A DNA stretch of 64,000 nucleotides. It comes from Psammoneis japonica (Eukaryota). Location: the NCBI GenBank assembly GCA_008632985.1, contig QPGO01000029.1, positions 508,874-572,873 on the forward strand, given 5' to 3'. The notes below the pieces were generated by a model, which worked only from the letters and a program-made list of their open reading frames with translations, did not search any database and was not told the DNA's origin. The number at the start of each line of letters is the position of its first letter. Position 1 is the first letter of the stretch. Below are positions 4,817 to 52,493 of this stretch, one piece after another. A program made the translations under genes and the position numbers.

Positions 4817-5362
4817 CTTTGTCAGAGCCAATGCGCTGTGATGTTCATCGCCTGGAACGGGCATCGCGAACGGTGCGACGGTGTCGTTGCGATCGATCGA
4901 TTTTTGCGGCAAGCGCCATGTTGGTCCCATGGTTGCTCGCGCAATCGCTGAGTCCTTTACACACATCAACATTCATGGATATGAACGACATGCTCTTGGA
5001 GACCAGAGCTGTGATCCGTTGGACATGACGCTAGAGTGTGGAATGTTTGATCACGTGGATGGAACATGTTGGCTAAGACACATGAACATTCGTGACAAAG
5101 CCAACATGATGATTTATGTGTGGAGGTCTGTCATTTGATCACACACATTTCATTAATCAAAATACGTTGTCAAATTGTTTGGACACTGCACATGTGGACA
5201 CATGTCTGTTGGATGTCATTGCTTGGGAGCAACACCGCCTGCTCGCGGGTTCGCCAAGTAGAAACCGCCAAATCGGCACGAGAGCCACACATTTTTCTCA
5301 CTTTCCTCCACTCACACAAGTGGATGCTCACGCGTCGAAACGCGAACAACTGCTGATGCACC

Positions 5363-10991: not shown

Positions 10992-11143
10992 GTCCCAAAA
11001 GGGGACAAACCGAACGGGTTTGCCGCGCAGGTGCGGCTTTTTCCCACCCCCAAAATGCAATTGCTGCCCTGGAACAGGGCAGCATCAGGTTGCATTTGTC
11101 AGTCAATCTGACCCAAGCAGAGCTGGCGTCAGTTCGAGGGGAC

Positions 11144-11327
11144 TGAATGAATGCTGATGTGCTGTCATGGATGCAGGCAGTTTAAGCGCTGTTGGCGATT
11201 GGTCCACTGTCGCTTGTTTGGTGGCCCCAGTGGCGTGACATCTCACAATTCTAGAACCTGTTGATGCTGTTCAACACTCTGTCTTGTCTCACACCCAATT
11301 CTCAGCTGTCATGGCAGCATTCATTCA
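11144..11327 (+). repeat. 3' LTR of the family B element
   Basis: TGAATGAATGCTG...CAGCATTCATTCA; 14 mismatches to the 5' LTR by manual alignment. Confidence 0.95.
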
Positions 11328-17400: not shown

Positions 17401-19626
17401 ATTGTCAACAAAACCCTGTTTTGCCTGAGCACTGCTGCTCCAGGCTTGTCATCACATGAGGAGCAGCAGTTTGTTCCTCTTCCCTGGTGAGAGTTTGCAC
17501 ACAAGAAGAAAGCCCAGGCTTGCTCAGGATGTCTGTGACTGTGACAATGTTGATGATGTCTGCTTGGCAATGCAAGGGATGGATTTGAACCCTTGGCACA
17601 CATGCACCACTTGGTGTTTGCAGTCTGGCTGTCACAGCATGTGCACAAAATCTTGTCAACCTTGTGGGCATGCAAGCAAATGCCAATGGCAAAAATGACA
17701 GAGTGGTGGTTTTGTTGAAGCAAATGATGTTGAGGAGGAGGTGGACAACAATGATGTCAAGGTGGAGGAGGAGACAATGGCTGACAACTTGTCACAAAAT
17801 CTCCTGGAGGAGCATCTTGATGATCTCCAGACAACACTCAGGCTGACCTCAGCAGCAGTGCAGTGGATGACTTGATTGATGCCAATGAAAGCATTGTCAA
17901 TGATGATGGTGCCCCAAGCAATGAGGAGCCAATCATCTTTGTTGCCAGCAGGGCTTGCTGCAAAAAGCAACCCCACACAAGTTGGGTCCAACCAGTGCTG
18001 CAAGCAGAGCAGGCATCTTTGCAAGGACCATGGACTTGCACCTGGCAAGCTGGTGCTCAAGCAGCACAAAAACATGGACAGTGCACAGTGTTCTTTTGAG
18101 CATTGTGGTGACAAGCAACACTGTTTTGCTTTCATTTGCCCATGGCCATTTGGAGGTGCAAGGTGGGCTGGCCAGTGATTCTTTTTCTTGAAGCCCTGCC
18201 CCAATGCATTTTTCTCTTTCCTGTGCCAAGCTTGGTGAGTGGGTGTGTTCTCAAATCATTTCAAGGCAAAAAAGCAGATGTGTTCAGCATGCTGCAGGAT
18301 GGCAGATGCCAGAAATCACATGGAAAAAGTGTGAAACACCAGCCAGCAGAAATTGTCCTCAAGGTTCTTTGCCCTTTTGTCTGTGCAATGCAAGTCCCAA
18401 CAACCAACTAACCACACTCTTCCATGCAGTGCTTGGCAAGGTCAGTTGTTGTGTGGCAGTTGTCAATGCAGAGGATGTGGTCTTTCTTGTGAGAGAGGCC
18501 ACATTGATGGGTCAGAGATGAGCCTCCAGCATCTTGGGTGTGGTGTTGGTTTCTTCTGCATTGTCTTTTCTGCTGTGGATGTTGAAGAAATGCACACAAG
18601 CAGACTCAGCACAGCACAGAGCAAACACCTTCACCACATGCTTGATGGGCTTTGCCAGCATGCACTGGACAAAGGTGATGGCTCTCTCTCTCCTTGCAAA
18701 GAATCACACTGTCATCTGTCATCATCAGCTTCTTGCCACAGCTCCATCCTTTCTGAAGTTTGGAAGACAGAAGATTGAGTGTTGGAATGACTTTGAAGAA
18801 TGGGTCATGTCCTGGCAAACCTTTTGGGTGTGCTCTTGAACTCTGAGCAAAGTGAACATTTTCTGAAACCAAGTGCATCATGACTCATCACATTGCAAAT
18901 CCATGGGCACCCCCCAGCCACATGGCTCATGCTCCCAACAATGCAAGTGCAACCAACCAGAGCCCCTTGATCTGCAAAGCCTTGCTGTGGCAAGCAAGGC
19001 CAGCACACAACATCCTCTCATGAACTTGAATTTTTTCAGTTCCTGTTTGGCATCACACCTGTGCTGGGGAGTGGGATTCTCTTTGTAGAGCCTCTGAAAG
19101 TGTGGCAGGATTTCCCTTTGTTGCATGGCACCTCTTCTGTGGCAGACCTCTGATGCTGCACTCATCTCTGGTGCATGTGCAAGTCAAGTGTCCCAGGCAC
19201 CCCCAGTCTTCAGCATCTTGGTCTGCTTTCCAAGCTTCATGAGTGGCTTGTGCTGGCTGTTTCTCTGCTTGCAGAAGGTGTGCTTGTTTCTTTTGTCCAG
19301 ATTTCTTGAACTGAGACTGTCGAGAGTGACTTGTCCCATCACTTCTTGAACCTGTCACAGAACATGATGACAAGAAATGGCACCCCACAATCTGCCAACA
19401 AGTTGCGAGCATTTCCAGCAGCTGACCACTTGCAAACTTGCAGACAATGTCAAGCTGCAAATTGAGCAGCTGTGATTTGTTGGGGTGCAGCTCTCACACA
19501 ACCTTGGTGTCACTTCATGATGACACACCAGTGTGGATCCACAAAAAAGTTGCAATGCTTTCGCATTTCAGCCCACCACAGTGTGAGTGCTTTTGTGAGT
19601 GGAGCACCCTGCACATCCACTCCATG

Positions 19627-22600
19627 TGTTAGAGCATCTGGAGTGAGTGGGAAACAGAAACTCAGAAAGGAAATGTTGAAGATTTGGTGACACCTGACAA
19701 GCAAGTCTGCTTGTTGCCAATCTTGCTGACCTCATTTTGTCTCACTCTTTGGAGTGAGTCATCTGGTTTGCACAAATCTCATTGTGGCATCAGCAGGCAC
19801 CTGCTGCATTGTGAGATTGAAGTTTGTTGAGGACTTTCAGGCAAACTGCAGCTGCCACAGCAACCAGGACAAGTGTGACAAGCAGCACAGGAAACCTCAG
19901 AGGACCCCCTTTTGGTGACATTGATTTGTTGGTTCAACATTCACTCCAAATGGTCACAAGCACTGCATTTGGTGCATGGAGACAGTGACCTCCATTCAAT
20001 CATTTGACACACAGGAACCTGCCTTGTGAGCAGCAGAGAAGGAGGTGAATCTGGCAGAGGAGGCCAAGGCATCAGCCAAGGCAGAGGTGACAAGTCTTTC
20101 TGTGACAAGAACAAGAAGACCAACCTGAAGAAGAGCTTCAAACCAGAGTTTCATCTTTCATCAATGAACAGCAACTCATGCAATTGAATGTTTGAAGATG
20201 CCAATGAAAAGATCATCAATCACATGTGCAGAAGGAGCATGGTCAAGGTGCACATTTTGTGGGGTCTCTGGAAGGTGTGGCACACAGAAATTTCTCTGGC
20301 AAGAGTCCTGCATTGGCACTGCCAATGACAATGGTGCCAGAACCAGGTCAAGCAGATTGCCAAAGTGTGGCAAACAAGAGAGCATGAGAAGAAAGACAAC
20401 TCAAGCATGAGTGCAAGATCAAGCTGCACAACCACAGTGAGAAAGTGAAGAAGCTTGAAGAAAACAAAACCACTGCATTTGCAGTGATCAGTGATCCTGG
20501 ATGATTGCTGCACCAAGCAAATGAAGCAGAGAGTGCAAGCCAACCATGGTCACCAGAGGATCAGAGATGACCCCCCCAATCAAGCTGCTGAAGCTGATCA
20601 TCCAGTCACCAACACTCAACTCCATGAGAGGTTGACATCCATTCCATGCACTTGCCAAGTCCCTGAAGCACATGCTGCAAGTGAAACAATTGGAGGACGA
20701 GTCACTGAATGACCACCTGTCAAGATTTAAGAATCAATGAGATGCCACAAGCAAAGAAGGTCTTGGCAGCAAGATGCCAGATGGACTCATCAAAAACACC
20801 GAGGAGCACAAGGACTGCACCACCCCAGTGGAACAGACCACATTGAAAGACCCTGCATTCAAGACATGGATGACACACCTGTTTTCAGAGAACAGCAATG
20901 ACTGCTTCTGCAAAAGAGCCTCAAGAAGAGCCTTGCCAGAGACTGCAGCCTGGGGAGGGACTCACATCAGAAGACCCTGGAGAAGACAATGGATGCACTG
21001 CTGAGCCACCCAAAGGACAACAATCCATGCAAGAGATGGAGCAAGAAGAGTGGTGAATGTCCAAGTCTCAGGAACTAAGACAGGACTGACAACAGGTCCC
21101 AGAACCCACAAGATCAAAGTCATGCCCAGAGTGGTGATCAAGGTGGCAACACAGTGTGCTGTTGTTGTGGTGTGAACCAAACCACAAGTTCCCAGACTGC
21201 AAGTGTGAGGATGAATCCCACAGAAGAGCTGGTGCAAGGACAGTGGAAAGAAACTGGGTGCCAGGGGACATGGTCACACACAAAGAGACAAAGACCAGCA
21301 TTCATCAGCGAGCATTGACAATGCTGGCATTGACACCTGCAGGTTTCTTGGTGTTCCTCACCAAGAAATGAGGTGTTTGCACAAAAGGGCAAATTGTCTG
21401 CAATGGCAAACTGACCCCAGAATGGTTGGACAAAGATGAATCAGCGAGCCCTGCTGAACCCCTTGAAGGAATGTTGACAACAGCAATCATTGACACCCAT
21501 GAAGGACACAGTGAAATGAGCACCAATGCTCCAAACGCATTTGTGCAGATGACAACACTGGAGCCTGGAGAAGGCAAAGACCAGGTTGTGATGAAGATTG
21601 CAGGAGCACCAGTGGACATGCCAGCAAGCATTGATCCCAACCTGTGTGGACCTTGTGTGGTTCCAGAGAAAGGCAAGAGAGTCCCTCATGCCCAAGTCAT
21701 CAGAGCCATCTGCAGTGTGCCAATCTTGGCTCTGCTGTGGTGCAATCAATTTTTGGAAAGACTTGGAGAAAACAGGATTCAAGTTTGGCCCACATGTGAT
21801 TCTTTGTGCATTGCCAATCATGCAGTCAATGGCAAGCAGTGCAGCCCATGATTTAATTTCATGTGGATGACCCCATTGTTGAGCCACAAGAACCCAAAAG
21901 CAAATGACAAGTTTCTGAGCTGGTCAAACAAGATGAGCTGCAGCCATGGTGAAATTGTTGCTGCATGAGGGAAGAGACATGGCTGTTCTGGCATGACCCT
22001 GGATTTCAGCCAGAAGGGCAAAATGAGAGTTGACATGACAGACTGTGCTTGCAAGATGATTGACCAATTTCCAGAAAAGTCAAACAGTGCAGACATTGCT
22101 GTGACACTGGCTGGAGAAAAGACTTTTGACACCTGTGGGACAAGCTCATCAGATGCAAAGGCTCAGACCTTCCACAAATGTGGGTGGCCAAGAGACTGTT
22201 CCTGTCCAAGAGAGGCCAAAAGGATGTGCACCTCGCTGTCACTGCATCATGCATGGAAGTGAGAGCTCAAACACAAAGGACCTTGGAGTTGTCAAGTGGC
22301 ATGTGGACACATCATTTTTGCAGCACATCCCAATTTCAAGAGCCACGCCAAAGGAGGAGTTGTGACAATGGGTGGTGGAGCAGTGCAGGCCACTTCAAAG
22401 TGCAAGAAGCTCCACACTCCAAGAAGCACAGAAGCTGAACTTGTTTGAGTTGACAATGCCATGGCTGTGACACTGTGGACCAAGCTGTTCTTGGAACACC
22501 AAGGGCATCCAATCAAACATCCTGCACCAGGACAACAACAGTTCCGTCCCACTGGCAACTGATGGGTGCAATTGTGCCGGCAAGCAATCGCAAGCACTCA

Positions 22601-24270
22601 ACATTTGGCATTTGCTTGTTGCTGATCAGATCAAGAAGGGCAACTTAAGAGTGCAGTGTTGTCCTGCCAATGACACACTGGGGGAACAGGCCCATGGAGA
22701 GCCCTGTGGTTGCATGGGTGTCACACAACATGGAAGCTGGTGGAAACCTTGATGGAAATGGATGCCAGTCATGAAGTGCGACAATGTCTCACTGCTGCCA
22801 CACCAATGTTCTCCATTTTTGGTGACAAAGGGATTGGACCCCCACCCAAACACACTGGAGCATGCCACTGAGGCACACAAGACCAAAGATTTTTGGCAAG
22901 TCCTGGGAGCTGATTCCTGGGGACAGAACAAGCAACTGCATCTGTGTGAAGGATCGACCTCCAGCAGGTGAACAGCATTTGTGGAGCCCAAGTGGTGGGC
23001 CAGAGCAAGAGGAAAAAAGATCAGCTTTGCCTTGACAAGACCAACATTGACAAGTCATGTTGGAAACCACACATCAGTTTTCCCACCTTTGGCATGAGCA
23101 AGAATGGGATTTGTGGTCCCCTCATGAAGCTCCAGAAGCTGGATCCTGTCAAAGCACAAGATCGATGAAGCCTCATGCTGGATGCTGAAGGAGTTGTTTG
23201 GGATGCCAGGAACTTGGCAGCATTTTCTTGCCATGAGACCTGATGACCACACCTCCTTGAGAGGTGGCATTGCTGCACTGACATGGTGCATCTGGACTTG
23301 GCTCCAGAGAGGACAATCAATGGTTGGGTCATGGACCAGCTTGAGCATGTGGAAGACAAGAATGAGAAAGAGAAATGTCATTGCACTCATGTGGAGCACT
23401 TTGTGAAGAGTGCACAGAGAGCTGCACGTGCATTGGATGACATGATTGGCCACAGCACCGATGGCAAGAATGCTCATTTGCATGTTTGTGAGTCACAGGA
23501 TGTTGAGAATCCTCAAGTGAGTGGCAGTGACACCAAGAGTCTTGAGCAGACTGATGAGCCACAAGACCACAATGAGTCTGATGAACACATGAACCACGTG
23601 AACAGCAGAACATCACTGCAAGTGTCTGCCAGACACACACCCCACACTGTCACCACATTGGGCACATGAGCAAGAGCTCCCACCAACAAGGATGTGGGGA
23701 AGCCAGTCCTTCATCTCAAGCATGTGAGCTGGGCAAGAAATGAAGTCACTGCAGCAAGGGTGAGAAGGACCTCCAAGTTGTCAAGTGGCATGTGAGCACA
23801 TCATTTGCAGTGCGCCCCAATTTCAAGAGCTGTGCTGGAGGAGTTCTCATGACAACAAGCAACAGAGCAGTGCAGGTCATCTCAAAGTGCCAGAAGCTCA
23901 ATGCCTGAAGCAGCATGGAAGCTGAACTTCTTGGAGTCAATGATGCCAGGGCTGTGATGCTGTGGACAAAGCTGTTCATGGAACACCAAGGGCATCCAAT
24001 TGACAAAAACATCCTGCATCAGAACAACAAGAGCACTGTCCTGCTGGAGACTGGTGGGCACAAGAGTGCCAGCAAGTGGTCCCAAGCACTCAATGTGTGG
24101 CATTTCTTTGTTGCCAATCCGATTGAGAAAGGCAACTCACAAGTGCAGTGTTGTCCTGCCAATGACATGCTTGGAGAGTTCATGACTGAGCTGTCACAAG
24201 GCAAGAAGTTTTTAAAGTTTAAACAAGCCATTGTGGTGGGTGGCTGGCTTCAAGCGAGACAGGCATGAGT
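19627..24270 (+). mobile_element. Decayed, internally deleted copia family A, copy 2
   Basis: Putative LTR 19627-19781, PBS-like TGGCATCAGC 19785-19794, gag remnant ~20040-21290, RT remnant (DKDESASP...MLTTAIIDTHEG...PNAFVQ, 21426-21851; MTLDFSQKGKMRVDM), RNase H remnant (EAELLGVNDA...HQNNKSTVLLE, 23915-24268). Similar to 1-4449 in the opposite orientation. Confidence 0.8.
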
Positions 24271-26276
24271 CCTTTTTTTTGTGATGTCAGATGAGAACAT
24301 CAATGCATGTGGGCAAAAGATCCCTGACACACTGATGTGCACCAAGCCAAATGGTTCAACAGCAATCACAATCTGTGGCTGCAATCGATTGATGAAAAGA
24401 TGAATGACAACTGTGATTTCAGATTGATCACATGAGGTGACCAACAACTGCAAGTTTGAGCTGGGGAACGGTGATGACATCCTCACCCAATGGCAGCCAT
24501 GGGACCATTGGGGTGGGTTCTGCAACCTTGAAAAGCTGGCCTGCAAGAACTTGAGAGATTGACGTGGTGCAACAAGGAACATGTCCAAGGGTTGCATGAG
24601 AGCAATGCATGGAGATTGGCACTTCATCCCAGTCCTTGCATTCATTGCAACACTGTTGATGCATGTGAAGTCAAGAGGTTGTGTGAGAGAATGAGGATCA
24701 AGGATCCAAGCCAGTGTTCCCAGCCTGGGGAATGGACAAGAAGGGCCTGTGGAGAGCCCTGTGGTGGTTGCAGAGCTGCCACAAAATGAAGGAGCTGCAG
24801 GTTGCACCAGATTTCTTGCAGATTCTCACTGTCATGCCTCATTTGGACATGCCAACAAGCAGTGGGCTTGCTGACTTTTCCATTGTTCTCATGACTGTGG
24901 TGCACACAAGTCTGCGAGCACCGCACTTGTCTCCAATTTGGATGGCCTGCCGTGCATCTGCTGATGAGTGTGCACATGCTGTCAGCATCGTGTTTTTTTT
25001 TCATGACAGGCACAGAATTGCCAAAATGACATTTTGATTGTCAAGCAAGGCAGGCAACAGTTTTGTTGACAACACACAATGCACCATGTGTGACTTTCAG
25101 CTGGGAGTGATGACACGTGTCCCAGCCAGCACACATTGACACGGCAACACACCATTGGATCTGTCATGCCAAATTGGTCTGCTGCACTGCAACTCATTGC
25201 TTTAGAAGCCTTGTGCTTGTTGATTTTTTGGCCAACAACACTGCAGCTTTGTTTTTTGTTCCTCTGTTGACTGCATGATGCAGTGCGTGCAACGTGCTTT
25301 GTGATCGGACAGCGCGGGAAATCAGGCCATGCAATGGATGGGAGCTCCAAGCCACTGGTGACCAGATCTGTGAACAGCTGCCAAGCTCACTCCAAATCCA
25401 TGCTCAGATGGTTTGGAGCAGCTGTCCTTCCTTGAAACTGTGTGTTGTTGACACCTGAGCTGAATTTGCCGCCTGTGGGCACCTTGGCCGGTGAACCACC
25501 CTCCTCCTTTCCTCAAACCAGCAAACGGCAATGGGGTCGGCATTGATTTTGCACTGCTCTTTTTCTGAGCTGAAGTTGCACCAGAGGGTCTGGTGGTTTC
25601 ACTCCAGTTTGGCAGATCTTCGGCTGCATTGTTGTCATTGTCCAACTCGCCACCCTGGCTGTGTCAGCTGCAGAGCGGCCTGAAAGTCTGCTGTCTCCAG
25701 CAAAGACTCGGCGGGAGCAAATTCACTGGTTGTGTCAGCTCCTGACCACTCCAGCAATTTGTCATCTTCCAGGATGCCTTCATCACATGCAGAGCACAAA
25801 TCATCACTGTTCTTGCTCTTGTGGGTGCACTCCACAACAACCGATCCATCGTCAGTGTCAAAAACAAAGCCACACCTTGAGCTCCAAGCTGCAAAACACC
25901 ATGTCATGCTGGCATGGCATCTTCCTCATTTTCATCACTTCAAAAATGCCAGAGTGTCAGTGCGAGTGCAGGAGAATGCAACAAAGCAAGAACGGCTTAA
26001 ATGTGCTATGTTTTGGTTGCCCTGCGGTGTTTTGCATTTTTCGATGCTGTTTCATGCAATGTGCTGAGAAAAAAGCAAAAAAAAAACGCGTGTTCCGAAG
26101 TACGAGCTATGCAAGCTGTTATTCTCGCTCCGTATGAACGTCGTTCCAGTTCTGCGGCATTCTACGGCCTTCGCCGCGAACAAATCTTTCACAAAGACGA
26201 ACGCCATTGCCGATCGCCATTGCCGATCGCCGCTGCGCTGCTTTTGCCATCGATTGGTTGGTCACATTGCAACATC

Positions 26277-28353: not shown

Positions 28354-28424
28354 GCGGCTATGGTGTAGTGGTAACATAAATGCCTTCCAAGCATTTGCCA
28401 TGGGTTCGATTCCCGTTAGCCGCA
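28354..28424 (+). tRNA. tRNA-Gly (anticodon UCC)
   Basis: Acceptor stem GCGGCTA/TAGCCGC, D-loop TAGTGGTA, anticodon arm AATGC-CTTCCAA-GCATT, T-loop GGTTCGATTCC, downstream T-run. Confidence 0.95.
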
Positions 28425-30322
28425 CTCGTTTTTAGGCGGCTGTGCTTTTTTATTATTTTCGCTTTTCATCGTACGTGCGTTGTGCGTGCATGCATTGGCG
28501 ATTCAAAATCCACTCGAGCGAGCGAGCGAGCGAGCGAGCGCGATCCAAGAAACTTCTTCCTTCCTTGCTTTCCCTTGGTCAATTGGCCAACGCAACCTCA
28601 ACACATCAAACACAAAATGAACATCATGCATGTGTTCGAGTCTCGACACGATTTGTTGTTGCGTCCACTGCGTTCACTGTGTTCATTGCGTTCATTGCGC
28701 TCTTCATTCTGAGTTCGACAGGCCCCATGTTTGGCAGAATGAATCTGCATGATGCGACACACTTTGCAAGTTGCAAGTGAGGACTTTTTGGAGCCACTGT
28801 CTGCTGTCTCTGTGCAATGTTGATTTGTCTCCTGTTCGGCATTTTGCAGCAGAAGCGCCGGCATGTGCCGCAAACGAAACGCTCGAAAAACGGCAAGGCA
28901 ACGACGTTGTGCAATGTCTTGCTGTTTGTCATGGGCATCTTGTGCCATTTGCTTTGTTTGCATTTTTGTGCATGTGTGTTGTTGCTTGTGTGTTGATGTG
29001 CTTTGAGATGCACCACTTGCTTCGATTGACATTTCGTCATTTGCCGAGCCGTTTTTTGTGCGAACATGGTGAGCATGTGTTGTGCAACATGCAACGAATC
29101 ACGAGGACAACGAATGAATTTTGTGCATCTGACAAAAGTGCTCTTTCTTTCTTTTGCAGACAATCAATGACACTGGTCCAATTCTGTCCTCCAATGACGC
29201 CGCTCTGACTGAAGCTCTGCACGTGTTGATGATGGTCCAAGCCCAAGTCCATCCTCCAAGAACGACAAGAAAAGCTGCGTCATGTGACAATGTCGACGAA
29301 CGGCACTGACAAAGCAGTGTCTTCATTTCTGCATCTTTCTGTGCCATCGGATCTACAGAGAAAGGCCGCCGAACGACTCGCACCTTGCCAATCCAGGGTT
29401 GTTGTCACAGGTCCACAGCAACTTCAAAAGCACCTTCCTCAAGACATGCCTCTTCACACCCCGCTTCTGTGGCAGAGTTTTAGAGAGTTGGACACTGTCC
29501 GACAATGCATGGGCGTTGCTGATTTTTCACAGACCTTGTTTGTCGCATTCGGCCATCTCATGCAATGCAAACAACAGTGCAACATCTTGTTGTGTTTTGC
29601 GAGTTCAAGAGTGACAAGATGTGAGAATGCCGACAAAAAACCGGCAGTGCGAGGACAGACCATCCGTGACTGATCAGGCGGGATTGATGCTTGCACGAAA
29701 TTGGCGCGCCGGAATTCCGCGGTCATCAATCTCAGAATCGACAAAAGGAAGGCGACTGTTGCATCGAGCAGCTTTGTTTTTTGACTGCTCTTTGAAAGGT
29801 GAGCATTTGTCTCCATTCACATCAATGTCTTGTGTGGTTTGTACATTGAGCATGATTTTCACTTCTCGTTTTTGGTTTGTCGTCGTGCCGATCATTTGAA
29901 CGCAAGAGTCGACGACTCCATCGGCACACGAGGTGCATCCGACGTCAATTGACTCGTCGTGACAGTGTCACACCAACAACGTTTTCCCCAGGTGAGCATT
30001 GAATCGACAATGCTGCTCTTCAATGATTTCCTCTTTGTGGAACAATGTGTTGCTCATTGACTGCTTTGTTTGGTGCTGACTGGTTGTTGGATCGATGTCG
30101 TTCAGCGTGTCGGAAACGATCGCACTGCAATGCAACGAGCACGCTACACTCGACTCCGCATTGGTGGAAGTGCACCTGTCGCTGTCATTCGGCACGGTGA
30201 GTGCAAAACCACATTGTTGTTCATGTTGCGCTCTTTTTTGTTTCTGGTTTGTTTCTGACAATCCATTGTTTGCTGTGGTGATGCCGAAGGATTCGCACTG
30301 CAGCTGGGTGTGTCGCATCACC

Positions 30323-32977
30323 ATGCCTCCCAAGCTGCACAAGCCCCTGGACAAAGGACAAAGGACTGTTGGCACCTTTTTTAGTCCCCTGGCCACTGCT
30401 CATGCAGCAGCTGGCGTCACAAGAAAGTTCAGGACTGCTGCCAGGACTCCTGCCATTGCGCTCCCAGTGAAGCGAAAGGTGGCCGAGACACCCGCGAGAG
30501 AGAAGTCCAAAGCTCCCAAATTGACCAAGCAAGCCACACTGCCTGTTGCTTCTTTCTTCCAATCACCACCGCCCGCCAGAGCCATTGATGCCCCCTCTCC
30601 AGTTTCGACTGACACTGACTTGCTTGCTGCCAACACTGCAGCCACCGACACCGACTCGTCTGCTGCCAGCACCGCAGCCACCGACACCAACTCGCCCACC
30701 GGTGCTGCCAACGTTGCAGCCACGGACACCGACTCGCCTGCCACTCACTCCTCAGTCACCACTGACACCGACTTGCTTGCCTCAAACAAGGATGACAACT
30801 GTGATGGCAAACAGCCATTTTACACCAAGGAAGAAAAGGAGCTTCTGGAACTAGAGAAGAAGCTGCAGGGACAAGAGCCCTTTGCTGACGACATGTCCGA
30901 TGGTCAGAAGGAGAAGTGCAATCGACATTTCGTGATGAAGATTGGTGGCGACCCAACGGCACGGAAGATTGCCAAGCCATTTGCTGAAAAGGCGTTCAAA
31001 ATCTTGAAGGAATCCTTGGAATTTGAAGATCCAAATGGACATCATTCACAATTTCTTGCATCTACGAAAAATGCCACCACGTGGGGTGGGACTCATGCTC
31101 GAATGGACCCAGAGCTTGAGCAAGTGCAAGGTGTGGGTGTGAGCACCAATTTTGTCAATCGCCGAAAGTGTCGGATTGAAAATGCAGGTGTCATCCCGGA
31201 GCAGTTTCGGGTTCTAGTGTCCCTTGATTTGATTGACGTTGAGGTCGAGAAGGAGCTTGTTCGCAATGTTGTGGATCCATTCATCAAGGCCATGGCAACC
31301 AATGAACTACTTCATCCATGTCAACGATTGTTTCATCAGCAGATTCGTGATCGTGGTGGCAATGTCCTTGGTTTCAAGAGGCAGGCACTGTTCCAATTGG
31401 TCGAGACAGGCATTCAGCTCCACTGTGGCTTGTTGAGCACACAAGAGCTGGCAATGTTTGATCATCAAGTTGCAAACAACTGTTGCACAATGGCGAGTGG
31501 CAGCTCGGAACGCATCTTTTCAGATTTACAACCGGTCGTGCGGTTTGCCAAATTCAACAATGCCAAGGTGTTTGTTCGTGCAATTGGTTCTTGGAAGCCT
31601 GGCCACAATGGCATGTCGAGCAACTGTGAGACAACCAATTGTGTCGTGGGACAAGAGCACATGTGGAGCGACACAATTGGCTTTCCTGCATTTGAGAATG
31701 CAAAGGGTGCGGATCAAATCTTTTCTGCCACCCACTCACCAGAACAGCGGGCAGGCGGGGACGCAGAAATGGACTCGGCTGTTGACGAGGTCGAAAGCCA
31801 CATTTGTGGCATTGGTGTTGTTGATGCGAACCACATTGTTTGCGTCAAGGATGAGGTGTTGTTGGAGAAGTTTGTCAAACGTGGCTACGAGTTGGCACGC
31901 CGGGAGGTTGACAATGAAATGATGGTTCTGGTCCATCCATCCAGGCCCCATGCATTTTTGATCAACCGACCCTTGTGTTTTGCCAGCGACAGTCGCAGCG
32001 AGATTCCCATGGCATGCAGAGCTCGTTGTGCTCTCAGCGCTGCTACGCTCACTAATGTTTTTCGATGCATCCGAGACGAGGAACCGCTCTGCCCGACCGA
32101 CGACTGTGTGAACCCCATCAACGCGATCCTTTCTTTCCAGACTGGACGTCTGGGATGCCGCCAGCACCCATTTGCCTGCAGTGCAGCCTTCCGCGACCTT
32201 GTCACCATGGAAGAAGTCCATGCATTGAAGGACAATAATCTCCCCAAGATGGACCCCAATGATGCGTTGACGTGTCGGTCTCGGTGCTGCAGCAGGAGAT
32301 TCCCACCAGAGCTTCTAGAGGGAAAGCGTGAGAATGATTCATTGATCATGGCCAAGGCACGTTGTCTGATTAGTTTGGCAAAAGCTGGAGAGGAGCAACA
32401 AATGTGTTGTGCCTTTAGGGAACTGCTTGAGAGCGGGGTTGGTGAAAACAATTCCAAAGCTTTGAGCTTGCGATTCAGAGACTTTCTTGGATGCCACATT
32501 CTCCCAGACTCGGAGCTTGGTTCTATTCTGCAAAAGCATTGGAGAGAAACGGCGGGCAATTGCAGCAACACAAGTGGCAGCGGGCAAACCAAAGACGAAA
32601 AGACAGACAGAGATTCAAAGTTGAAGGATCTCATGGAACGGTTTGCACCAGGCGAGGACGGCAAGGCTGGAGAAATGTTTTGGACTCGAGAGGTTAGAGC
32701 GCCATTTCCACCTGCTCCCGCAGAAGGTGAGCCCAGTGATTTGCCGACAAGCAGCCCCAGCATCACATTTCTGGGCAACATTTTTGTTTGTCACGGTCAC
32801 ACTGAGGGTTCCATTCGTGGGCGTGCGAAGAACGTAGTCCGACAAGGCAGCACCAATCATGCAACGTCGGCTGATTGCAACGATGTGTCCATTGTTGCAG
32901 TGACGCATGCGGGGAAATCAATTGGGACAAAGCCTGAAGAGGAAGGCTGGATCCTTTGTCAATTCATCAAGAAATGA
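30323..32977 (+). CDS. Unknown ~885-aa protein, repeat copy 1 (frame open but TpA-eroded, so possibly non-functional)
   Basis: Long ORF (probable start MPPKLHKPL at 30323) with an N-terminal T/D/S/A-rich low-complexity segment, highly similar to 35105-37759. Confidence 0.6.
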   Translation: MPPKLHKPLDKGQRTVGTFFSPLATAHAAAGVTRKFRTAARTPAIALPVKRKVAETPAREKSKAPKLTKQATLPVASFFQSPPPARAIDAPSPVSTDTDLLAANTAATDTDSSAASTAATDTNSPTGAANVAATDTDSPATHSSVTTDTDLLASNKDDNCDGKQPFYTKEEKELLELEKKLQGQEPFADDMSDGQKEKCNRHFVMKIGGDPTARKIAKPFAEKAFKILKESLEFEDPNGHHSQFLASTKNATTWGGTHARMDPELEQVQGVGVSTNFVNRRKCRIENAGVIPEQFRVLVSLDLIDVEVEKELVRNVVDPFIKAMATNELLHPCQRLFHQQIRDRGGNVLGFKRQALFQLVETGIQLHCGLLSTQELAMFDHQVANNCCTMASGSSERIFSDLQPVVRFAKFNNAKVFVRAIGSWKPGHNGMSSNCETTNCVVGQEHMWSDTIGFPAFENAKGADQIFSATHSPEQRAGGDAEMDSAVDEVESHICGIGVVDANHIVCVKDEVLLEKFVKRGYELARREVDNEMMVLVHPSRPHAFLINRPLCFASDSRSEIPMACRARCALSAATLTNVFRCIRDEEPLCPTDDCVNPINAILSFQTGRLGCRQHPFACSAAFRDLVTMEEVHALKDNNLPKMDPNDALTCRSRCCSRRFPPELLEGKRENDSLIMAKARCLISLAKAGEEQQMCCAFRELLESGVGENNSKALSLRFRDFLGCHILPDSELGSILQKHWRETAGNCSNTSGSGQTKDEKTDRDSKLKDLMERFAPGEDGKAGEMFWTREVRAPFPPAPAEGEPSDLPTSSPSITFLGNIFVCHGHTEGSIRGRAKNVVRQGSTNHATSADCNDVSIVAVTHAGKSIGTKPEEEGWILCQFIKK

Positions 32978-35104
32978 TGGACTTCATGGGTGGAACAATG
33001 TAGGGTGACATTCCTTTAGACTAAATTTTGGGCGGTTGAGCTTTTGCATCATACTTAGGCGGCTGTGCTTTTTATTATTTTTGCTTTTTGCAGTTCGTGC
33101 TGCACGCGTACGTGGTCGGGATGGCGGAAGGACGCAGAAAACCAAGGGAAGCAAGGAATGCAGGATTTTTTGGATTGTTTCACATAAGTTTCTGCCACCA
33201 TCATCAAGCGATGTGCGTCGCCTATCTTCCTTTACAGTAGCCTTAGGGTTGCCTGTTGCTCGGCACACTTGTGCTGACTGTGACAATGTGTGTATCCTCC
33301 ATCCATCTGTCTTTGCTGAAGCAGAGCTGCTGTTAGTGGTCAAGTGCTATATTGTCATTTGCAAGATGATTCTGAAACGACACAAGTCAGTAGAAGCGAC
33401 ATCCGAATTCTTATGGCGTCTATTTTCCTTTCTATGGATTGATCGTATCGCATCTGGTGAGCATTTGATGCGTGCTCTTTTGAACTTTTGTTGTCACTCC
33501 AGCACTCCATTCTTTACTTGCATTGTTTTCTCTTACGCTCTTTATTTCTTTTCTTCAGATTATGCCAACAGGAAACGACATACGCCATCCCTTGTTGACA
33601 GACAAGATGAAATAACTATTGTATTCATTGAGTCTCCACACGCTTTTTGCTGTGTGTTGGTATTTATGCTCTTTGGTTTTGCTGAAGATCAGCGTTGCGA
33701 CTTTGGGTATGGCAATAATTCGTTTTGGTGGCTTGAGACAGAGAGACATCCTTTTCTGCCATAGTTACCGGTCTAAAGTCATTAGCGAGAACGAGTGGTA
33801 TTGAAGAGAACAATCTCTCCATCTGCTAGCTACCGGTGGATTGTGGATTGCTGTGTTTGTATTATTGGTAAGCGACGCACCATTTCACTCTCGGCATCAT
33901 TTCGTCATTTCAATAGCTACTTGTCTCACACTCTGTCTATTCTGTTTTTATCAACATTATCAGAGGGGAGACGAGCATCGTGCCTCAATGTCTGCAAAAT
34001 GGTCACCTGCGCAATGTCGACGAACGGCACTGACAGAGCGGTGTCTTAATTTCCGTGTCTTGTTGTTCATTTCGATCTACACAGAATGGCCACCGAACGA
34101 CTCGTACCTTACCAATCTAGGGTTGTCGTCATAGGTCAAGACTTTGTGGTGACGAGTGTCAGCGAGTTACAGAAACTGCAGACGCACCTCGCGGCGTGCC
34201 GGCCCAAGACGAAGCCATCACTCATTTCATTCGAAGCACAGTCGTATTCGTTAACCAGAACGCACGGCATTCACACCAAGCAATCTCCCTGTCTGCTGTA
34301 AATTATGGAAAACTCTGTATTATTGGCAAGTTGATTACCATCTACAAGAAAGATGCTTTCTCTCACGGCATCGCATCGTTTACTTGATTGTTGCTGCTTG
34401 TCTCACTGTGCTTTGGATTCTCTATCATTGGGGCCTAAAGCCTGGCCACTGGTGCTGCAGTGGAGAGTGGGAGAGCCACAGCAGTCAATGCAATTAATGA
34501 ATGCTCGATTGTGCTCGCTGGCAAGTGTCAGTGCCATAGGTGTGCTCGCCTATCTACTCTCTACTCTCTAGCTAGTAGAGACAGTGTCTCCGCACCTCCG
34601 ACTCACGATTGACTCTCACGACTGAGAGATGAAAGATACGAATCACATGTCCAGAATGTATATGTTCAATACAGAGTGGCATTTTTTCGGCGCGTTTCGC
34701 CTCATTGATCAAACAAAAAACAAAGCGAGACATCACTCTACTCTCGTTATTGCACTTGCTTTTGGTGCGGCATTCCTTCTTTACCTCGTTTCATTTTCCT
34801 CATTCCGCTGTCGATGTGTGATGCTGGTGCTCACATTGGTTGTTACTTGTTGTTTGTTTCGCCATCTCAATGGTGACAGGAGACGAGTGCGAGATGCGAA
34901 GCTCTTCGTGCAGCTCGGCATTGGAGGCTGTGCACCAATCGCTGGCATGCGACACGGTGAGTGCTCAATCACATTGTCATTCATGCTGAATTCTTCTTTT
35001 GTCTCTGATGTTCATCTGGTCATTCGTCATTCTCATTGTTTGTCATGTCGTTTGCTCTTGTGATGCCGAAGGATTCGCGCCGCAGCTGCATGTGTCGCGT
35101 CATC

Positions 35105-37759
35105 ATGCCTCCCAAGCAGCATGAGCCCCTGGCCAAAGGACAAAGGACTGTCGGTGCCTTTTTCAGTCCCCTTGCCAATGCCAATGCAGCAGCTGGCATC
35201 ACAAGAAAGTTCAGGACTGCCACCAGGACTCCTGCTGTTGCGCTCCCAGTGAAGCGAAAGGCGGCCGAGACACCCACGAGAGAGAAGTCCAAAGCTCCCA
35301 AATTGACCGAGCAAGCCACACTGCCTGTCACCAGTTTCTTCCAATCACCACCGCCTGCTGGAGCTGTTGACACCCCCTCTCCAATTTCGACTGATGCCCA
35401 CTCGTCCACTGCCAGCACTGCTTCCACCGACACCGACTCGTCTGCTGCCAGCACCGCAGCCACCGACACCAACTCGCCTGCCGGTGCTGCCAACGTTGCA
35501 GCCACGGATGCCGACTCGCCCACTGCTCACTCCTCAGCAACTGCCGACACCGACTTGATTGCCTCAACCAAGGATGACAACTGTGGTGGCAAACAGCCAT
35601 TTTACACCAAGGAAGAAAAGGAGCTTCTGGAACTGGAGAGGAAGAATCAGGGACAAGAGCCCTTTGCTGATGACATGTCCGATGGTCAGAAGGAGAAGTG
35701 CAATCAACATTTCGTGATGAAGATTGGTGGCGACCCAACGGCATGGAAGATTGCCAAGCCATTTGCTGAAAAGGCGTTCAAAATCTTGAAGGAATCCTTG
35801 GAATTTGAAGATCCAAATGGACGTTGCTCACAATTTCTTGCATCTACGAAAAATGTCACCACGCGGGGTGGGACTTGTGCTCGAATGGACCCAGAGCTTG
35901 AGCAAGTGCAAGGTGTGGGCGTGAGCACCAATTTTGTCAATCGCCGAAAGTGTCGGATTGAAAATGCAGGCATCATCCCGGAGCAGTTTCGGGTTCTAGC
36001 ATCCCTTGATTTGATTGACGTTGAGGTCAAGAAGGAGCTTGTTCGCAATGTTGTGGATCCATTCATCAAGGCCATGGCAACCAATGAACTGCTTCATCCA
36101 TTTCAACGATTGTTTCATCGGCAGATTTGTGATCGTGGTGGCGATGTCCTTGGTTTCAAGAGGCAGGCACTGTTCCAATTGGTGGAGACAGGTGTGCAGC
36201 AACACCATGGCTTGTCGAGCACTCAAGAGCTGGTGATGTTTGACCATCAAGTTGCAAACAACTGTTGCGAGACTGCCAGCTGCAGCTCGGAATGCATCTT
36301 TTCAGATTTACAACCGGTCGTGCGGTTTGCCAAATCCAACAATGCCAAGGTGTTTGTTCGTGCAATTGGTTCTTGGAAGCCTGGCCACAATGGCATGTCG
36401 AGCAAACGTGAGACAACCAATTGTGTTGTGGGACAAGAGCACGCACTCAGTGACATGCTTGGCTTTCCTGCATTTGAGAACGCAAAGGGTGCGGATCAAA
36501 TCTTTTCTGCCGCCTGTTCACCAGAACAGCGGGCAGGCGGGGACGTAGAAATGGATTCGGCCATTGACGAGGTCGAAAGCCACATTTGTGGTGTTGGCAT
36601 TGTTGACACGAACCACATCATTTGCGTCAAGGATGAGGTGTTGTTGGCGAAGTTTGTCAAACGTGGCCACAAGTTGGTGCGCCGGGAGGTTGACAATGAA
36701 ATGATGGTTCTGGTCCATCCATCCAGGCCCCATGCATTTTTGATCAACCGACCCTTGTGTTTTGCCAGTGGCAGTTGCAGCGAGATTCCCATGGCACACA
36801 GAGCTCGTCGTGCTCTCAGCGCTGCTGCGCTCACTAATGTTTTTCGACGCGTCCGAGATGAGGAACCGCTCTGCCCGACCGACGACCACATGAACCCCAT
36901 CAACACGATCCTTTCTTTCCAGACTGGACATCTGGGATGCCACCAGCACCCTTTCACCTGCAGTGCAGCCTTCCGCGACCTTGTTGCCACAGAAGAAGTC
37001 CATGCATTGAAGGACAACAATCTCCCCAAGATGGACCCCAATGGTGCGTTGACGTGTCGGTCTCGGTGCTGCAACAGGAGATTCCCACCAGAGCTTCTAG
37101 AGGGAAAGCGTGAGAATTGTTCATTGATCATGGCCAAGGCACGTTGTCTGACCAGTTTGGCAAAAGCTGGAGAGGAGCAACAAATGTGTTATGCCTTTGG
37201 GGAATTGCTTGAGAGCGGGGTTGGTGGAAACAATTCCAAAGCTTTGAGCTTGCGATTCAGAGACTTTCTTGGATGCCACATTCTCCCAGACTCAGAGCTT
37301 GGTTCTATTCTGCAAAAGCATTGGAGGGAAACGGCCGGCAATCGCGGCAACACAAGTGGCAGCGGGCAAACCAAAGATGAAAAGACAGACAGAGATTCAA
37401 AGTTGAAGGATCTCATGGAACGGTTTGCCCCAGGCGAGGACGGCAAGGCTGGAGAAATGTTTTGGACTCGAGAGGTTAGAGTGCCATTTCCACCTGCTCC
37501 CGCAGAAGGCGAGCCCAGTGATTTGCCGACAAGCAGCCCCAGCATCACATTTCCCGGTGACATTTTTGTTCATCACTGTCACACCAAGGATTCCATTTGT
37601 GGGCGTACGAAGAACGTAGTCTGACAAGGCAACACCAATCATGCAACGTCGGCTGATTACAACGATGTGTCTGTTGTTGCAGTGACGCATGCGGGGAAAT
37701 CAATTGGGACAAAGCCTGAAGAGGAAGGCTGGATCCTTTGTCAATTCATCAAGAAATAA
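35105..37759 (+). pseudogene. Unknown protein, repeat copy 2, premature stop at 37622-37624
   Basis: Colinear with copy 1. CGA in copy 1 is TGA here, and homology continues to the original stop near 37759. Confidence 0.75.
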
Positions 37760-39443
37760 TGGACTTCATGGGTGGAACAATGTAGGACAACATTCCTTTA
37801 GACTGAATTTTGGGCGGTTGTGATTTTTCAAAATGGGGCACATTCGCTCGTGATCACACGTTACGAAATCCAAGGGAAAGCAAGGGAATGAAAAACCAAG
37901 GGACGGAAGGTTGGCAGAATGCAGAAAAAACACCACAAGTGTCATTTTTTCATGCATCGCTTGCTGCGCTGTGGCCTTCTTCAGCCTTGCCTTGCAGTTG
38001 TCGACTGCCCGCCAAGAACATTGTTCATGTTGACTGCAATCTGTTGGAGCTGAAATGGCGTCATTGCTGTGGTCAAGAGAATTTCACATCACATGGCAGC
38101 TCTTCTTTGTGGTGTTCGTTTCTTTCTTTTGGGCTGCAGTCAAAAGGATGTGATCATGCGCAAAGTCTTGAATGCGTGAACAATTTGTTCACTCACTCAC
38201 GTGTGCTTGGCTTGTTTGAATGTTTGTTGTTGCTTCATTTGTTGCTTGTGCTCTTTGTTCTTTTTCGCTGATTGGAGTGGAGGGGAGACGTCTGTTGACT
38301 GACACGGTCAGTTTGATTCATTGCACAAGGCAAGAGACTTGCACAATTGTCTCCATTTGTGCACAAGATGCATGTGCTTCAGCTCTCTGTGTTGACAAAT
38401 GCTCTTGATCTGGCTCCACTCGTTTCTCTTGTTTGAATTTGGTTGCTGCCGGGCGGTCCATTCGAAGACACACCTCAAGACATGTGTTGCCTCAACATGC
38501 ACCTCAAGACACACAGCACCTCAAGATGCACAACCACACGGGCTTTTGTTCTTGTTTTTTGTTGCACTTGGATCTGCCTCAAGAAATGCAGCATCTCATT
38601 TCTTGCTCATTGATGATGACATGTTGGCACCGAAGCTTCAATTCTCTGTCTCTGTCCAAAGAGTGTTGGTTGCACCCATTTTGCAGTGCACTTCTCTGCT
38701 GTCTGGCCTTTTGTAAGAGCGCAGTGGGCACTGCACAGTGCCGCATCTTTCGGCCAATGTGGGACCTCATCTGGAGCTCTGGAGAGAGGCCCCGCTGTCA
38801 TGTTGTTGGATGGAGAGCAAAGATGGATGAAGCAAGACGCCGGTGCAGCACAATTGAGGTGCACGTGCCTGTCATCATCAGTCCCTGTGACCACAATTCA
38901 CACAAGACCCAGATCACATGGCTGTGTTCAGGATGGTTGTTGGCAATTGTGCAACTTTTTTCTGGCGTGTCATCTCCCCTCACTTCTTCGGCAAAACGCA
39001 ACGAGATGAGAGACCCATCATGGCACTTTTGGTCTTTGCCCCTGCTGTTGGTGAGGTTTGCCTTATGACCCATTTAGTGCATTTCCTCATTCTGCATTCT
39101 GACATTGATGTTGTGCTCACATTGACTGTTGTTGTTGTTGTTGTTGTTGTTGTTCGTTGTAGATTTGTGCCAATGTCTGATGAAGAGAACGAGACACTTT
39201 GCTCGACTCGCCATTGGTTGCACATCACAACCATTGGAAAAGGCAAGCTGCACTGTTGATCTAATTGCTCTGCAATGCTTTCTCATTGCATTTTTTCTCA
39301 TTCATCCATCGTCACAAATTTCTCACATTGTTTGCAATTTTTGTTGTTGTTGTTTGTTCAGCTGTCTCAAAAGTGATGGGAAACAAGGACTCGATGTACA
39401 AAGCTCTCAGCATTGACAGCACACCAATCACTGTCATTCAGCC

Positions 39444-40745
39444 ATGCCTCCAGCCGGTGAAAACAAGCCTCTGTCCAGGGGACAAAAGACCATTGGTGCA
39501 TTTTTTTGTTCAATGAGCAATCCAAGAATTGCCAGCAAGACCCCGGTGATGACAACAGCAAAACAAAAAGCTGCCGAATCACCTGTGGTCAGGAACTCCA
39601 AAGCCACAAAAAGGACTGAGCTGTCAACTCTGCCAATTGCCAGTTTCTTCCAGTCCTTGCCTTTGACTGGAGCAATTGACATCTCCTCTCCAGTTTCCAC
39701 TGATGACGACTCTCATCCACTGCCGGTGTTGCAGCCACTGATGCTGACTCGTCTGCCACCAGCATTGCAGCCACCGACAACTGCTCATCTGCTGCCGGCA
39801 TTGCAGCCTTGGACACCGACTCCTCTGCTGCCGGCATTGTTTGCTGCTGGTGTTGCAGCCTTTGACACTGACTCATCTGCCTTTTACACTGTCTCATCTG
39901 CTGCCAATGTTGCAGCCTTTTCTTCGAACACATTCAGTGAGCAAATGGCGAGGAAGATTGCAAAAAACCACGTGCTGAACAAGCATTTAAAATCCTGGAG
40001 GAGGCATTGGAGTTTGAAGATCCAAATGGACATCACTCTCAATTTCTTGCATCTGCAAAAAATGTCACCACATGGGGTGGGACTCATGCTTGAATGGACA
40101 CAGAGCTTGAGCCGCAAGCACAAGGTGTGGGCATGAGTGCCAATTTTGTCAATCGCCGAAAGCATCCTCAGATTGAAAATGCAGGCATTGCCCCAGAGCA
40201 GTTTTGGGCTCTGGCGTCCCTTGATTTGATTGACATTGAGGTCAAGAAGGAGCTTGTTTGCAATGTTGTAGATCCAATCATCAAGGCCATGGCAACCAAT
40301 GAACTGCTTCATCCATTTCAACGATTGTTTCTTGTGATTGTGGTTGCAACGTCCTTGGTTTCAAGAGGCAGGCACTGTTCCAATTGGTGGAGACAGGTGC
40401 ACAACAGCAACACTGTGGCTTGTCAAGCACTCAAGAACTGGCAATGTTTGATGATCAAGTCGCAAACAACTGCTGGCAGGACCACCAGCTGCAGCTCCAA
40501 ATGCACCTTTTCAGATTTGCAACCCGTCGTGCGGTTTGCCAAATCCAACAATGCCAAGGTGTTTGTTTGTGCAATTGGTTCTTGGAAGCCTGACCACAGC
40601 GGCATGTCAAGCAACTGTGAGACAACAAATTGTGTCATGGGACAAGAGCACGTGTTCAGTGACACACTTGGCTTTCCTGCATTTGGCGAATGCAAAGGGT
40701 GCAGATCAAATCTTTTGCACTGCCTGTTCACCAGAGCAGCAGGTG
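39444..40745 (+). pseudogene. Unknown protein, repeat copy 3, truncated and frameshifted
   Basis: Fragments MPPAGENKPLSRGQKTIGAFF, DLIDIEVKKELV...KAMATNELLHPFQRLF and NNAKVFVCAIGSWKP match copies 1 and 2. Confidence 0.8.
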
Positions 40746-41207
40746 CCTGGTGTTTTCTTTTCAGTTTCATTGCATCAGCCTGGCGGCGAAGAATGATGTT
40801 AACTCCGTTTCTGGTTTTGCGGTGTTGCTTGGTGTCGGCCGGAGTTTGGCGGCTGCTGTCTGGACTGTCGGAGATACAGTGTTGACTCATCTTTCGACAC
40901 ATTCAAAGCGCGCGACTGCTGCGTCAACCGTCCAAGAATGCGCAAGGCTTGAATCTCCTCAAATTTCGCTTGTCGCTACTCTCTGCTTCAGCTGCCTCTC
41001 TAATAGCGGCGTCGCGGCAGCGCTAAGCTATGGGCATTATAGCTCTTGTGAGGCTAAAGAAGTGCGTTGCTACTCTAGCTAGCTTATACTTCTGTACGTA
41101 TCTTCGAGCTGAAAGACGCCATGCAGTACAAGCATTGTAAAAGTCTATTCATCGTTCATGTCTAGAGAAGTACTAGTCCAATCAACCCCCATCAAGTTCA
41201 TGCCCTT

Positions 41208-51967: not shown

Positions 51968-52493
51968 ACAATGTTCTCAGCAGTTTGAAACAAAAAGCTA
52001 GTTTCATTGTGACAGCTTTAGCGGGTCAAGCCGGAGTCACTAGATTTAAAATTAGGCCATAAATGATTTTCGAATCACATCATCACTGAATATTCGGCTC
52101 TGTTACACTCTACCGTAGAGCAGTATCTGAGGTAGACTAACGCGAAATCTCGCGATCTAGCTAGAGAAAGGTCGAGATATTCGTGCACTCGTGTGGTAGC
52201 AACAGTCTGCTCTATCTCTCTACTCTACTAGATAGAGCGAACAGTATGTAGATAGGCTATTACTGTTTTTCGAGTTTTCTTCGTCGACAAGTCCGTCTCG
52301 TCTCTGCCTCCTCTACCGAAGAGCACACGCTACTTTTCACGAAAAATCGAAATCGCTGTCGGCGACATTGAACATCTTCACAATGATCTTTTGATAGAAG
52401 GAGGAAGTTACAGTACATTGTTGCTTTCGTCCAAGCAATTACGATACGGAACACATCATCGACTGTGTTATAATGTAATTGAAAGAGTGAAAA

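Follow-up and report, generated by a model that had tools for sequence, protein, structure and literature searches.

A tRNA-anchored tandem array in Psammoneis japonica with TpA-eroded units and a partly spared 5' module

Repeat-induced point mutation (RIP) mutates both members of a long linked duplicate. A different hypermutation, of A:T to G:C and restricted to TpA, has been described in Bigelowiella natans, where, as far as the available part of the preprint tells, the hypermutated region is single-copy and silent, the ongoing rate is about 1000-fold above background and the targets are of viral origin (bioRxiv 10.64898/2026.01.13.699255). Among TadA-derived adenine base editors, the accessible portion of one study reports that TAT and TAC are promoted and motifs followed by a purine are inhibited (PMC10879117); passages of PMC10661471 add nothing on the sequence context of TadA. 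A TpA-specific DNA mutator has so far been measured in one alga only. The subject here is a tandem array of repeat units behind a tRNA gene in the diatom Psammoneis japonica, contained in a stretch of 64,000 nucleotides (GenBank assembly GCA_008632985.1, contig QPGO01000029.1, positions 508,874 to 572,873 of the forward strand; hereafter the window). Most of this array has lost its TpA (TA) dinucleotides to TpG and CpA, and the 5' part of its second unit, termed the island, has been partly spared.

Observed/expected (O/E) TA is 0.61 in the island (33055-34800) and 0.65 in 41000-64000, where ordinary genes are spared, against 0.07 in 28432-30153 and 0.08-0.11 in two open reading frames (ORFs) of the array. 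TA sites of the reference copies are kept at 52 of 81 positions in the island and, downstream of it, at 5 of 73 (Fisher p 2e-14); when eight copies are used to polarise the sites more strictly, 18 island sites count as eroded and 56 as kept. The sparing is graded, as the core (33600-34350) keeps 32 of 37 sites, the left flank 13 of 25 and the right flank 7 of 19. An earlier sequence-only reading had placed an intact copy in a TA-normal island; the richness in TA stands, while the word intact does not, given the partial erosion. The explanation favoured here, with moderate confidence, is an A-to-G mutator that acts regionally under the guidance of chromatin and leaves active 5' ends spared. The parts of the array are as follows.

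28354-28425, plus strand: tRNA-Gly(TCC), the array anchor (ARAGORN; Rfam RF00005, 68.3 bits)
28432-28466, plus strand: start motif of unit 1, 7 nt behind tRNA-Gly; 35-nt direct repeat with 33055-33088, bracketing unit 1
28432-30322, plus strand: 5' module of unit 1 (A type), fully TA-eroded and CpG-normal (TA O/E 0.06, CpG O/E 0.98)
29288-29413, plus strand: eroded copy of a conserved non-coding block (self-BLAST, alignment with relatives)
30323-32977, plus strand: ORF of unit 1, about 884 amino acids from ATG, eroded, probable GIY-YIG nuclease family
33028-33048, plus strand: older start motif, copied along with the 3' end of unit 1 (twin at 37810-37830)
33055-34850, plus strand: the island, 5' module of unit 2 (B type), partly spared by reference TA site counts
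34012-34137, plus strand: the conserved block in its spared copy, which lies within a leader exon and in the tract 34000-34345 (alignment)
34850-35104, plus strand: B-type module, 3' end; erosion is complete, with a single one of 18 reference TA sites surviving in 34800-35104
35105-37624, plus strand: ORF of unit 2, eroded, ending early; ancestry passes from C135-like to unit-1-like at about 35060-35200
37810-40760, plus strand: unit 3, with start motif, eroded module and broken partial ORF

Three tandem units start 7 nt behind the tRNA-Gly gene, each made up of a roughly 1.9-kb 5' module followed by an ORF. The modules are of two diverged types, A and B, which have little in common beyond the 126-nt block and the 35-nt start. 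The ORF regions form a linked duplicate of 2.9 kb (30154-33048 versus 34914-37830, 90.7% identical). Unit 1 is enclosed by the 35-nt repeat and unit 2 continues into unit 3, which suggests that unit 1 may be a later addition. The sequence-only reading saw no evident gene in the island, which turns out to be the 5' part of a unit whose ORF begins at 35105. A search of the genome with the island returned 42 matches, and six arrays were compared (C29, C135, C103, C83, C43 and C167), together with further loci carrying the block only.

The mutational signature is confined to TpA. Both TA-rich A copies have TA at 46 sites of the module; in unit 1, 40 of these read CA or TG, 4 are still TA and 2 read otherwise. 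The bases changed in the unit 1 module amount to 36/79 in TpA, 8/182 in TpT, 8/138 in TpC, 14/136 in TpG and 7/111 in CpG. Across six eroded copies, the fraction changed is 0.42-0.46 for TpA and 0.01-0.10 for TpT, TpC and TpG; CpA, at 0.01-0.05, is so far below TpA that the change is not the C>T of RIP. Polymerase eta acts on the WA motif, in which AA>AG is expected to rise together with TA>TG. Mutagenesis of A:T by such a polymerase was rejected, as the TpT/ApA class is changed at 0.02-0.07, the background level. Confinement to TpA thus fits neither RIP nor the WA pattern of polymerase eta. A search for Tet_JBP proteins found no match anywhere, its positive controls were likewise silent, and it bears neither way on a thymine-modification route.

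TA erosion of the unit 1 module is complete without CpG decay (CpG O/E 0.98), so that TA would be lost first, with CpG decay lagging. An A before a pyrimidine is converted about twice as often as an A before a purine (0.55 versus 0.28, at sites shared between copies and not independent), and surviving TA lies mostly in TTAA, CTAA/TTAG and CTAG. Where the ORFs of units 1 and 2 are both converted, they show the same CA/TG state at 38 of 56 sites, and distant pairs agree at 58-63% (binomial p 0.28). This agreement, no better than that of distant pairs, indicates that the two ORFs eroded separately, after duplication. Elsewhere in the window, 1-4300 and 15000-25500 are depleted of both TA and CG (CG O/E about 0-0.3), in comparison to 28500-38000, which is depleted of TA alone.

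The targets of TA erosion in the window are the array and a copia element at 4633-11328 (RVT_2 in a frame of 1240 amino acids, 7269-10991), the 5' long terminal repeat (LTR) of which keeps TA at nine sites that read CA/TG in the 3' LTR (9:0). Across the arrays 17 modules were measured; five of them are rich in TA (0.55-0.75) and the other 12 eroded (0.02-0.12). In each of the five, the TA level drops from the module to the 3' end of the ORF, and of the 14 ORFs measured, those behind an eroded module are never TA-rich.

Under the favoured explanation, a DNA mutator would turn TpA into TpG/CpA over whole chromosomal patches, copy by copy and after duplication. It would most likely be a TadA/ADAT2-like enzyme that deaminates A in silenced chromatin, held off where the promoter and leader of a unit are active now or were recently, so that sparing would be strongest in the 5' module and fade into the ORF. 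Unit 1 would have been fully converted, and unit 2 would have lost its ORF and kept most of its leader. Sparing of active 5' ends by a mutator working patch by patch is favoured since the modules, the ORFs, the LTRs and the one-way pairs described below all fit it.

The sequence-only reading set out from the block at 29288-29413 and 34012-34137, described as paralogous copies with opposite fates. Self-BLAST of the window bears out the paralogy, with 83.3% identity over 126 nt (E 4e-31, 133 bits) against a top score of 29.2 bits in 20 shuffled windows; the alignment of full paralogous blocks that it proposed yields this match, and elsewhere the surrounding modules have diverged too far for BLAST. 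The two 37-mers, at 34101 and 29377, are, as it had stated, exactly five transitions apart, four of them TA>CA/TG and one CG>TG. They are the cleanest part of the block, which in whole has 21 differences (13 transitions and 8 transversions), only four of them TA>CA/TG, and one TA kept in both copies. With eight transversions among the 21 differences, most of the block divergence is older than, or unrelated to, the TA loss. The four named TA sites read TA in 5, 5, 6 and 4 of six TA-rich relatives and the CG site reads CG in 6 of 6, two of these relatives belonging to a separate, more distant family of block carriers. Judged by these letters, TA and CG are ancestral at all five sites, and an outgroup with ancestral TG/CA, which might have overturned the reading, did not appear. 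The two blocks are best explained as one conserved non-coding element in the 5' modules of neighbouring units.

A structured RNA finds no support. Covariation is matched by 44 of 500 shuffles, the RNA fold z-score is -1.4 at best, and tRNA is the one Rfam family that attains its gathering score. The block does allow a conserved hairpin to be drawn, which was discarded as support, as two of its three two-sided changes are the TA>TG/CA changes themselves. The same block also occurs, once or twice, near one end of a separate young repeat family with copies 97-99.9% alike (C199:38390-44000, with L039, L063 and L058; C222, C49 and C8). This family carries an ORF of 1150-1250 amino acids with a TNP-like RNase H N-terminal match (PF21787), on the opposite strand; it and the array element are unrelated, yet have the block in common. 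Further block copies lie beside long ORFs with a weak 3'-5' exonuclease match (L059:674-3328 and L060:4013-6982).

That being duplicated is not sufficient for erosion, as the sequence-only reading proposed, is supported by other pairs of copies. C135a and C135b, linked in tandem 7 kb apart and separated by 1.6-1.9% transversions, show one-way TA loss of 39:0 and 41:1; C103a and C83A, both directly behind a tRNA-Glu gene and 1.3% apart in transversions, show 75:2. Its own pair is a poor test of place against pairing, consisting of a 126-nt block in diverged modules. In addition, the 2.9-kb linked duplicate is eroded in both copies and brackets the island exactly; the island is therefore also an unduplicated spacer between two eroded ORF copies, and the pair at 29.3 and 34.0 kb cannot test pairing.

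These relations bear on a second explanation, a RIP-like, pairing-triggered hit on the two linked 2.9-kb ORF copies that leaks a few hundred bases and leaves the island as a unique spacer. The island edges (about 33050 and 34800-34900) coincide with the ends of the duplicate, both ORF copies are eroded, and leakage of RIP into flanks is known, according to the part of the source available (PMC7296669). However, the modules of units 1 and 3 are fully eroded and have no close linked partner in the window, C135a keeps TA over 2 kb beside the linked twin that lost it, C103a and C83A differ in the same one-way manner, and the Bigelowiella target, in the accessible preprint text, is single-copy. Mutation of both copies, seen in the ORFs of units 1 and 2, fails in C135a/C135b, unless C135a is a late arrival. 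Pairing fits the window and not the other pairs; it is largely refuted by the one-way pairs, unless the intact copies are recent arrivals, and is considered improbable.

A third explanation invokes time instead of protection: an intact copy would have supplied all or most of the module at a late date, through insertion or through gene conversion, and erosion would now be proceeding inward from the flanks. The mosaic ancestry of the island agrees with it, since the tract 34000-34345, which holds the spared block, is only 0.6% in transversions from C135a. So do the intact start motif at 33055, 25 nt behind the older one, the graded edges on both sides of the island, the TA-rich first units behind the tRNA genes in C103 and C43, and read contigs with further copies or alleles, whose letters at 31901-31922 match none of five aligned copies. 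Against it, the right erosion edge (about 34800) lies inside B-type sequence with unbroken alignment to three relatives and precedes the ancestry switch to unit-1 type (about 35060-35200) by 250-400 nt; it is thus not an insertion junction. In addition, 33120-34000 is 3.7-4.5% in transversions from its nearest assembled relatives, unit 1 seems to be the later addition, the first units in C29 and C83 are eroded, and that in C167 is TA-poor too. The suggestion that the island is a recent insertion from elsewhere, made earlier as a possible refutation, consequently loses ground without falling, and late arrival, although it agrees with much of the evidence, is regarded as unlikely, if clearly the better of these two rivals.

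Assembly error offers a fourth explanation, in which the island would be a chimera, an intact paralogue wrongly joined to the eroded array. Contig breaks are frequent across the array, and no contig among those listed spans either island edge. In the DNA run X1, however, letters of the window stand at a depth of 62-70 at four island sites (total minus other-letter depth), like the single-copy flanks at 58-62, although X1 is perhaps the source sample of the assembly and its depth not independent support; furthermore, the island differs by at least 9% from every assembled relative. A chimera is scarcely credible. At 31081 and 31756, the single X1 contig there has a letter unlike both the window and unit 2, both CpG>TpG/CpA, and 28868 differs as well; these letters possibly reflect ongoing CpG decay or alleles. 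At 31858-31998, X1 has a contig of about half depth, which X2 contains too and which agrees with none of the five copies aligned; it is an allele, or an unassembled and probably expressed copy.

Evidence for the function of the modules comes from run X2, which stems from the same sample as X1. It is labelled 'DNA?' and was treated as transcript-like from its joints and poly-A end, since its contigs pass over the GT-AG introns of neighbouring host genes and have poly-A ends. The splice features of the B-type module are the following.

33457-33558, plus strand: position of a GT-AG intron that a transcript-like contig from a sister copy lacks
33868-33963, plus strand: position of a GT-AG intron, likewise missing from a transcript-like sister-copy contig
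34326-34327, plus strand: putative splice donor, which reads GT in the intact copy C135a and GC in unit 2 through a TA>CA change within the island; its intron is deduced from the stop point of contig record 10
34957-35068, plus strand: intron position in the 3' end of the module, spliced in a C135a-like contig

X2 contigs on the module bridge 33457-33558, 33868-33963 and 34957-35068, the last of these joining the module to the start of the ORF. In active sister copies, therefore, the module serves as a long leader that is spliced. The X2 contigs carry the letters of the TA-rich copies, agreeing with C135a at 19 of 19 sites checked among the differences listed, and two junction pieces match a TA-rich copy outside the compared set. 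The window copy has lost the GT of its putative donor at 34326-34327 through the TA change. The proposal that the island may hide a promoter or non-coding RNA proves half right, a spliced 5' leader being found in the sister copies and no Rfam family or covarying structure. As to expression over the island, which was to be checked, the transcript-like contigs show splicing of sister copies and, at the sites checked, no letter of the window's own. A sigma-70 scan was empty and is irrelevant here. Two other accounts of the island were set aside: a stop-to-stop frame of 251 amino acids at 33009-33764 is not taken as a gene, as it has no Pfam match and the C135a frames reach only 105-107 amino acids, and coding selection is not taken as the cause of sparing, as the island is non-coding and TA is kept in its introns.

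Several observations weigh against the mutator explanation. The window copy's own letter is found in the transcript-like contigs at 0 of 19 module sites checked, and the sister transcripts reach at least the equivalent of 33159, placing their start at the left edge, whereas the best-spared part is 33600-34350. The island is a mosaic, with 34429-34585 having seven of seven converted states and a deletion in common with C135b; together with the C135a-like tract, this indicates that gene conversion has acted in it. Converted states in the left flank match C83B at nine of nine shared CA/TG sites, and part of the apparent erosion there may be inherited, or a gain in the reference. C135a, C103a and C43a may owe their TA richness to youth or to a place at the edge of an array, and the start of the C103d module was drawn by eye where TA rises, which favours the module-to-ORF pattern. 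Finally, the genome has five matches to deaminase-like genes, which are universal and none of which is tied to the process.

Turning to the element itself, the genome contains five exact copies of the 18-mer of the start motif and none of its reversed control. Four of the five follow a tRNA gene and the other stands at the start of the island, and a variant lies behind tRNA-Gly in C43. The distance from tRNA to array is 7 nt for Gly-TCC, 9 nt for Gly-GCC, 8 nt for both Glu-TTC and Glu-CTC, and 10 nt for Phe-GAA. This anchoring, seen in this genome alone, holds for five of the seven contigs that encode the protein core, with five tRNA genes for three amino acids; of the remaining two, C135 is cut by the contig end and C84 has no tRNA in 13.5 kb. 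Upstream of the C43 array are six tandem tRNA-Gly(GCC) calls (C43:275830-278800), in DNA that is TA-poor except beside the array. The tRNA-Glu genes at C83:232532-232604 and C103:226967-227039 differ at three sites, namely the anticodon and a TA>CA and a TA>TG that face each other in the acceptor stem.

The array protein has 375 relatives at E<=0.001 among 50% representatives, including a homologue annotated in Nitzschia inconspicua (KAG7344000.1). The GIY-YIG superfamily is characterised by a bipartite motif followed by a conserved Arg and Glu. In an alignment of 147 sequences, the conserved residues are Y79 (79/87), G93 (86/91), R101 (77/86) and E182 (98/100), counted over rows with a residue. 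Pfam GIY-YIG/T5orf172 matches occur in 4 of 30 homologues, weak and all below the cut-off, and a profile matches T4 EndoII at E 0.004. The structure model reaches a mean predicted local distance difference test (pLDDT) of 89.5, compared to 49.9 for an earlier model from 10 sequences. The I-TevI catalytic domain aligns to model residues 75-192 (Z 5.2, root-mean-square deviation (rmsd) 1.9, 65 of 92 residues), ranking 50 of 50, and residues 236-405 show a uracil-DNA-glycosylase-like match (Z 5.3, rmsd 4.3, 145 aligned) that is no more than a lead. Foldseek of the model against the PDB and viral sets gave no match at E<=0.001, and a VIA structural search had a best Z of 7.2, with none at 8 or above. 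The conserved residues, with weak backing from Pfam, the profile match and the small structural match to I-TevI, make the protein a probable GIY-YIG nuclease, with about 600 further residues that belong to no known family.

In both window ORF copies, 10 of the 13 reference Tyr read Cys or His, including the Tyr of the GIY box (31094 in unit 1). The Pfam scan found no match in the array ORFs, and with it no reverse transcriptase (RT) or integrase there; RT is also missing from the 30 homologues, and the ORF fills the unit. A word-based protein search with a 941-amino-acid ORF found no relative, an Atlas search gave no usable match, and a scan of viral contigs with a single pattern found no relative of the array protein. 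A divergent copy of the protein (25% identity) lies at C84:329329-331690 (L056), with the block behind it, reversed. Mobility would proceed by nuclease-triggered recombination. Tentatively, the array may be an undescribed class of RT-less mobile element of diatoms, directed by its GIY-YIG nuclease to sites 7-10 nt behind tRNA genes, with leader and ORF modules swapped between copies; a host TadA-like genomic A-to-G mutator, excluded from transcribed 5' ends, would disable its copies chiefly through the loss of Tyr codons and of GTAAG splice donors.

Among the ordinary TA-normal genes of the window is a telomerase reverse transcriptase in one frame of 1117 amino acids (52491-55844). The genome contains 24 silicon-transporter matches above the Pfam cut-off, and C38:226311-230342 has three such domains in a frame of 1511 amino acids.

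The arrays contain near-identical copies with opposite fates, expressed or eroded, and the guidance of the mutator, whether by pairing, age or chromatin, is therefore testable per copy. They also reveal an order (TA before CpG loss), a local preference (A before pyrimidine) and a route of gene killing. The element appears to represent a tRNA-targeting nuclease family as yet undescribed, of which 375 relatives are found among protein representatives. A literature search, mostly without subscription papers, found no account of the process in diatoms beyond the Bigelowiella preprint, nor of the element.

Penelope-like elements form tandem arrays and have retained introns. From these and from other GIY-YIG systems the array differs by its roughly 600 extra residues, the lack of an RT among the matches found, its nuclear spliceosomal leader and its anchoring 3' of tRNA genes. 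A GIY-YIG-like domain is probably common to the array protein and the homing endonucleases I-TevI and T4 EndoII, as described in the available part of PMC1564403. TRE3 and Skipper-2 of Dictyostelium similarly insert just 3' of tRNA genes of several isotypes, Skipper-2 at 8-23 bp compared to 7-10 nt here, and, by the accessible text, both are retrotransposons (PMC5911963), unlike the array ORFs, in which no RT or integrase was found. This lack of an RT sets the array element apart from TRE3, Skipper-2 and Penelope alike.

With respect to the mutational process, Neurospora RIP resembles it in dinucleotide-biased transitions in repeats that spread into flanks, and differs, going by the same part of the source, in being C>T; here, one of two near-identical linked copies may be spared and modules with no close linked partner are hit (PMC7296669). 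TadA-derived editors, as far as the available text goes, likewise convert A to G with a preference for A before a pyrimidine, although they are engineered, Cas9-guided and also act on CAT, GAC and GAT (PMC10879117). There is likeness to Bigelowiella too, where the change is also TpA>TpG/CpA only, regional and directed at foreign or mobile DNA with no second copy needed, and where an ADAT2-like deaminase has been proposed (bioRxiv 10.64898/2026.01.13.699255); the words 'diatom', 'promoter' and 'context' are absent from the preprint text. Measured against the available portion of that account, the array stands out by its diatom host, the near-complete conversion, an apparently non-viral target, the preference for A before a pyrimidine, the lagging CpG decay and the graded sparing of 5' ends.

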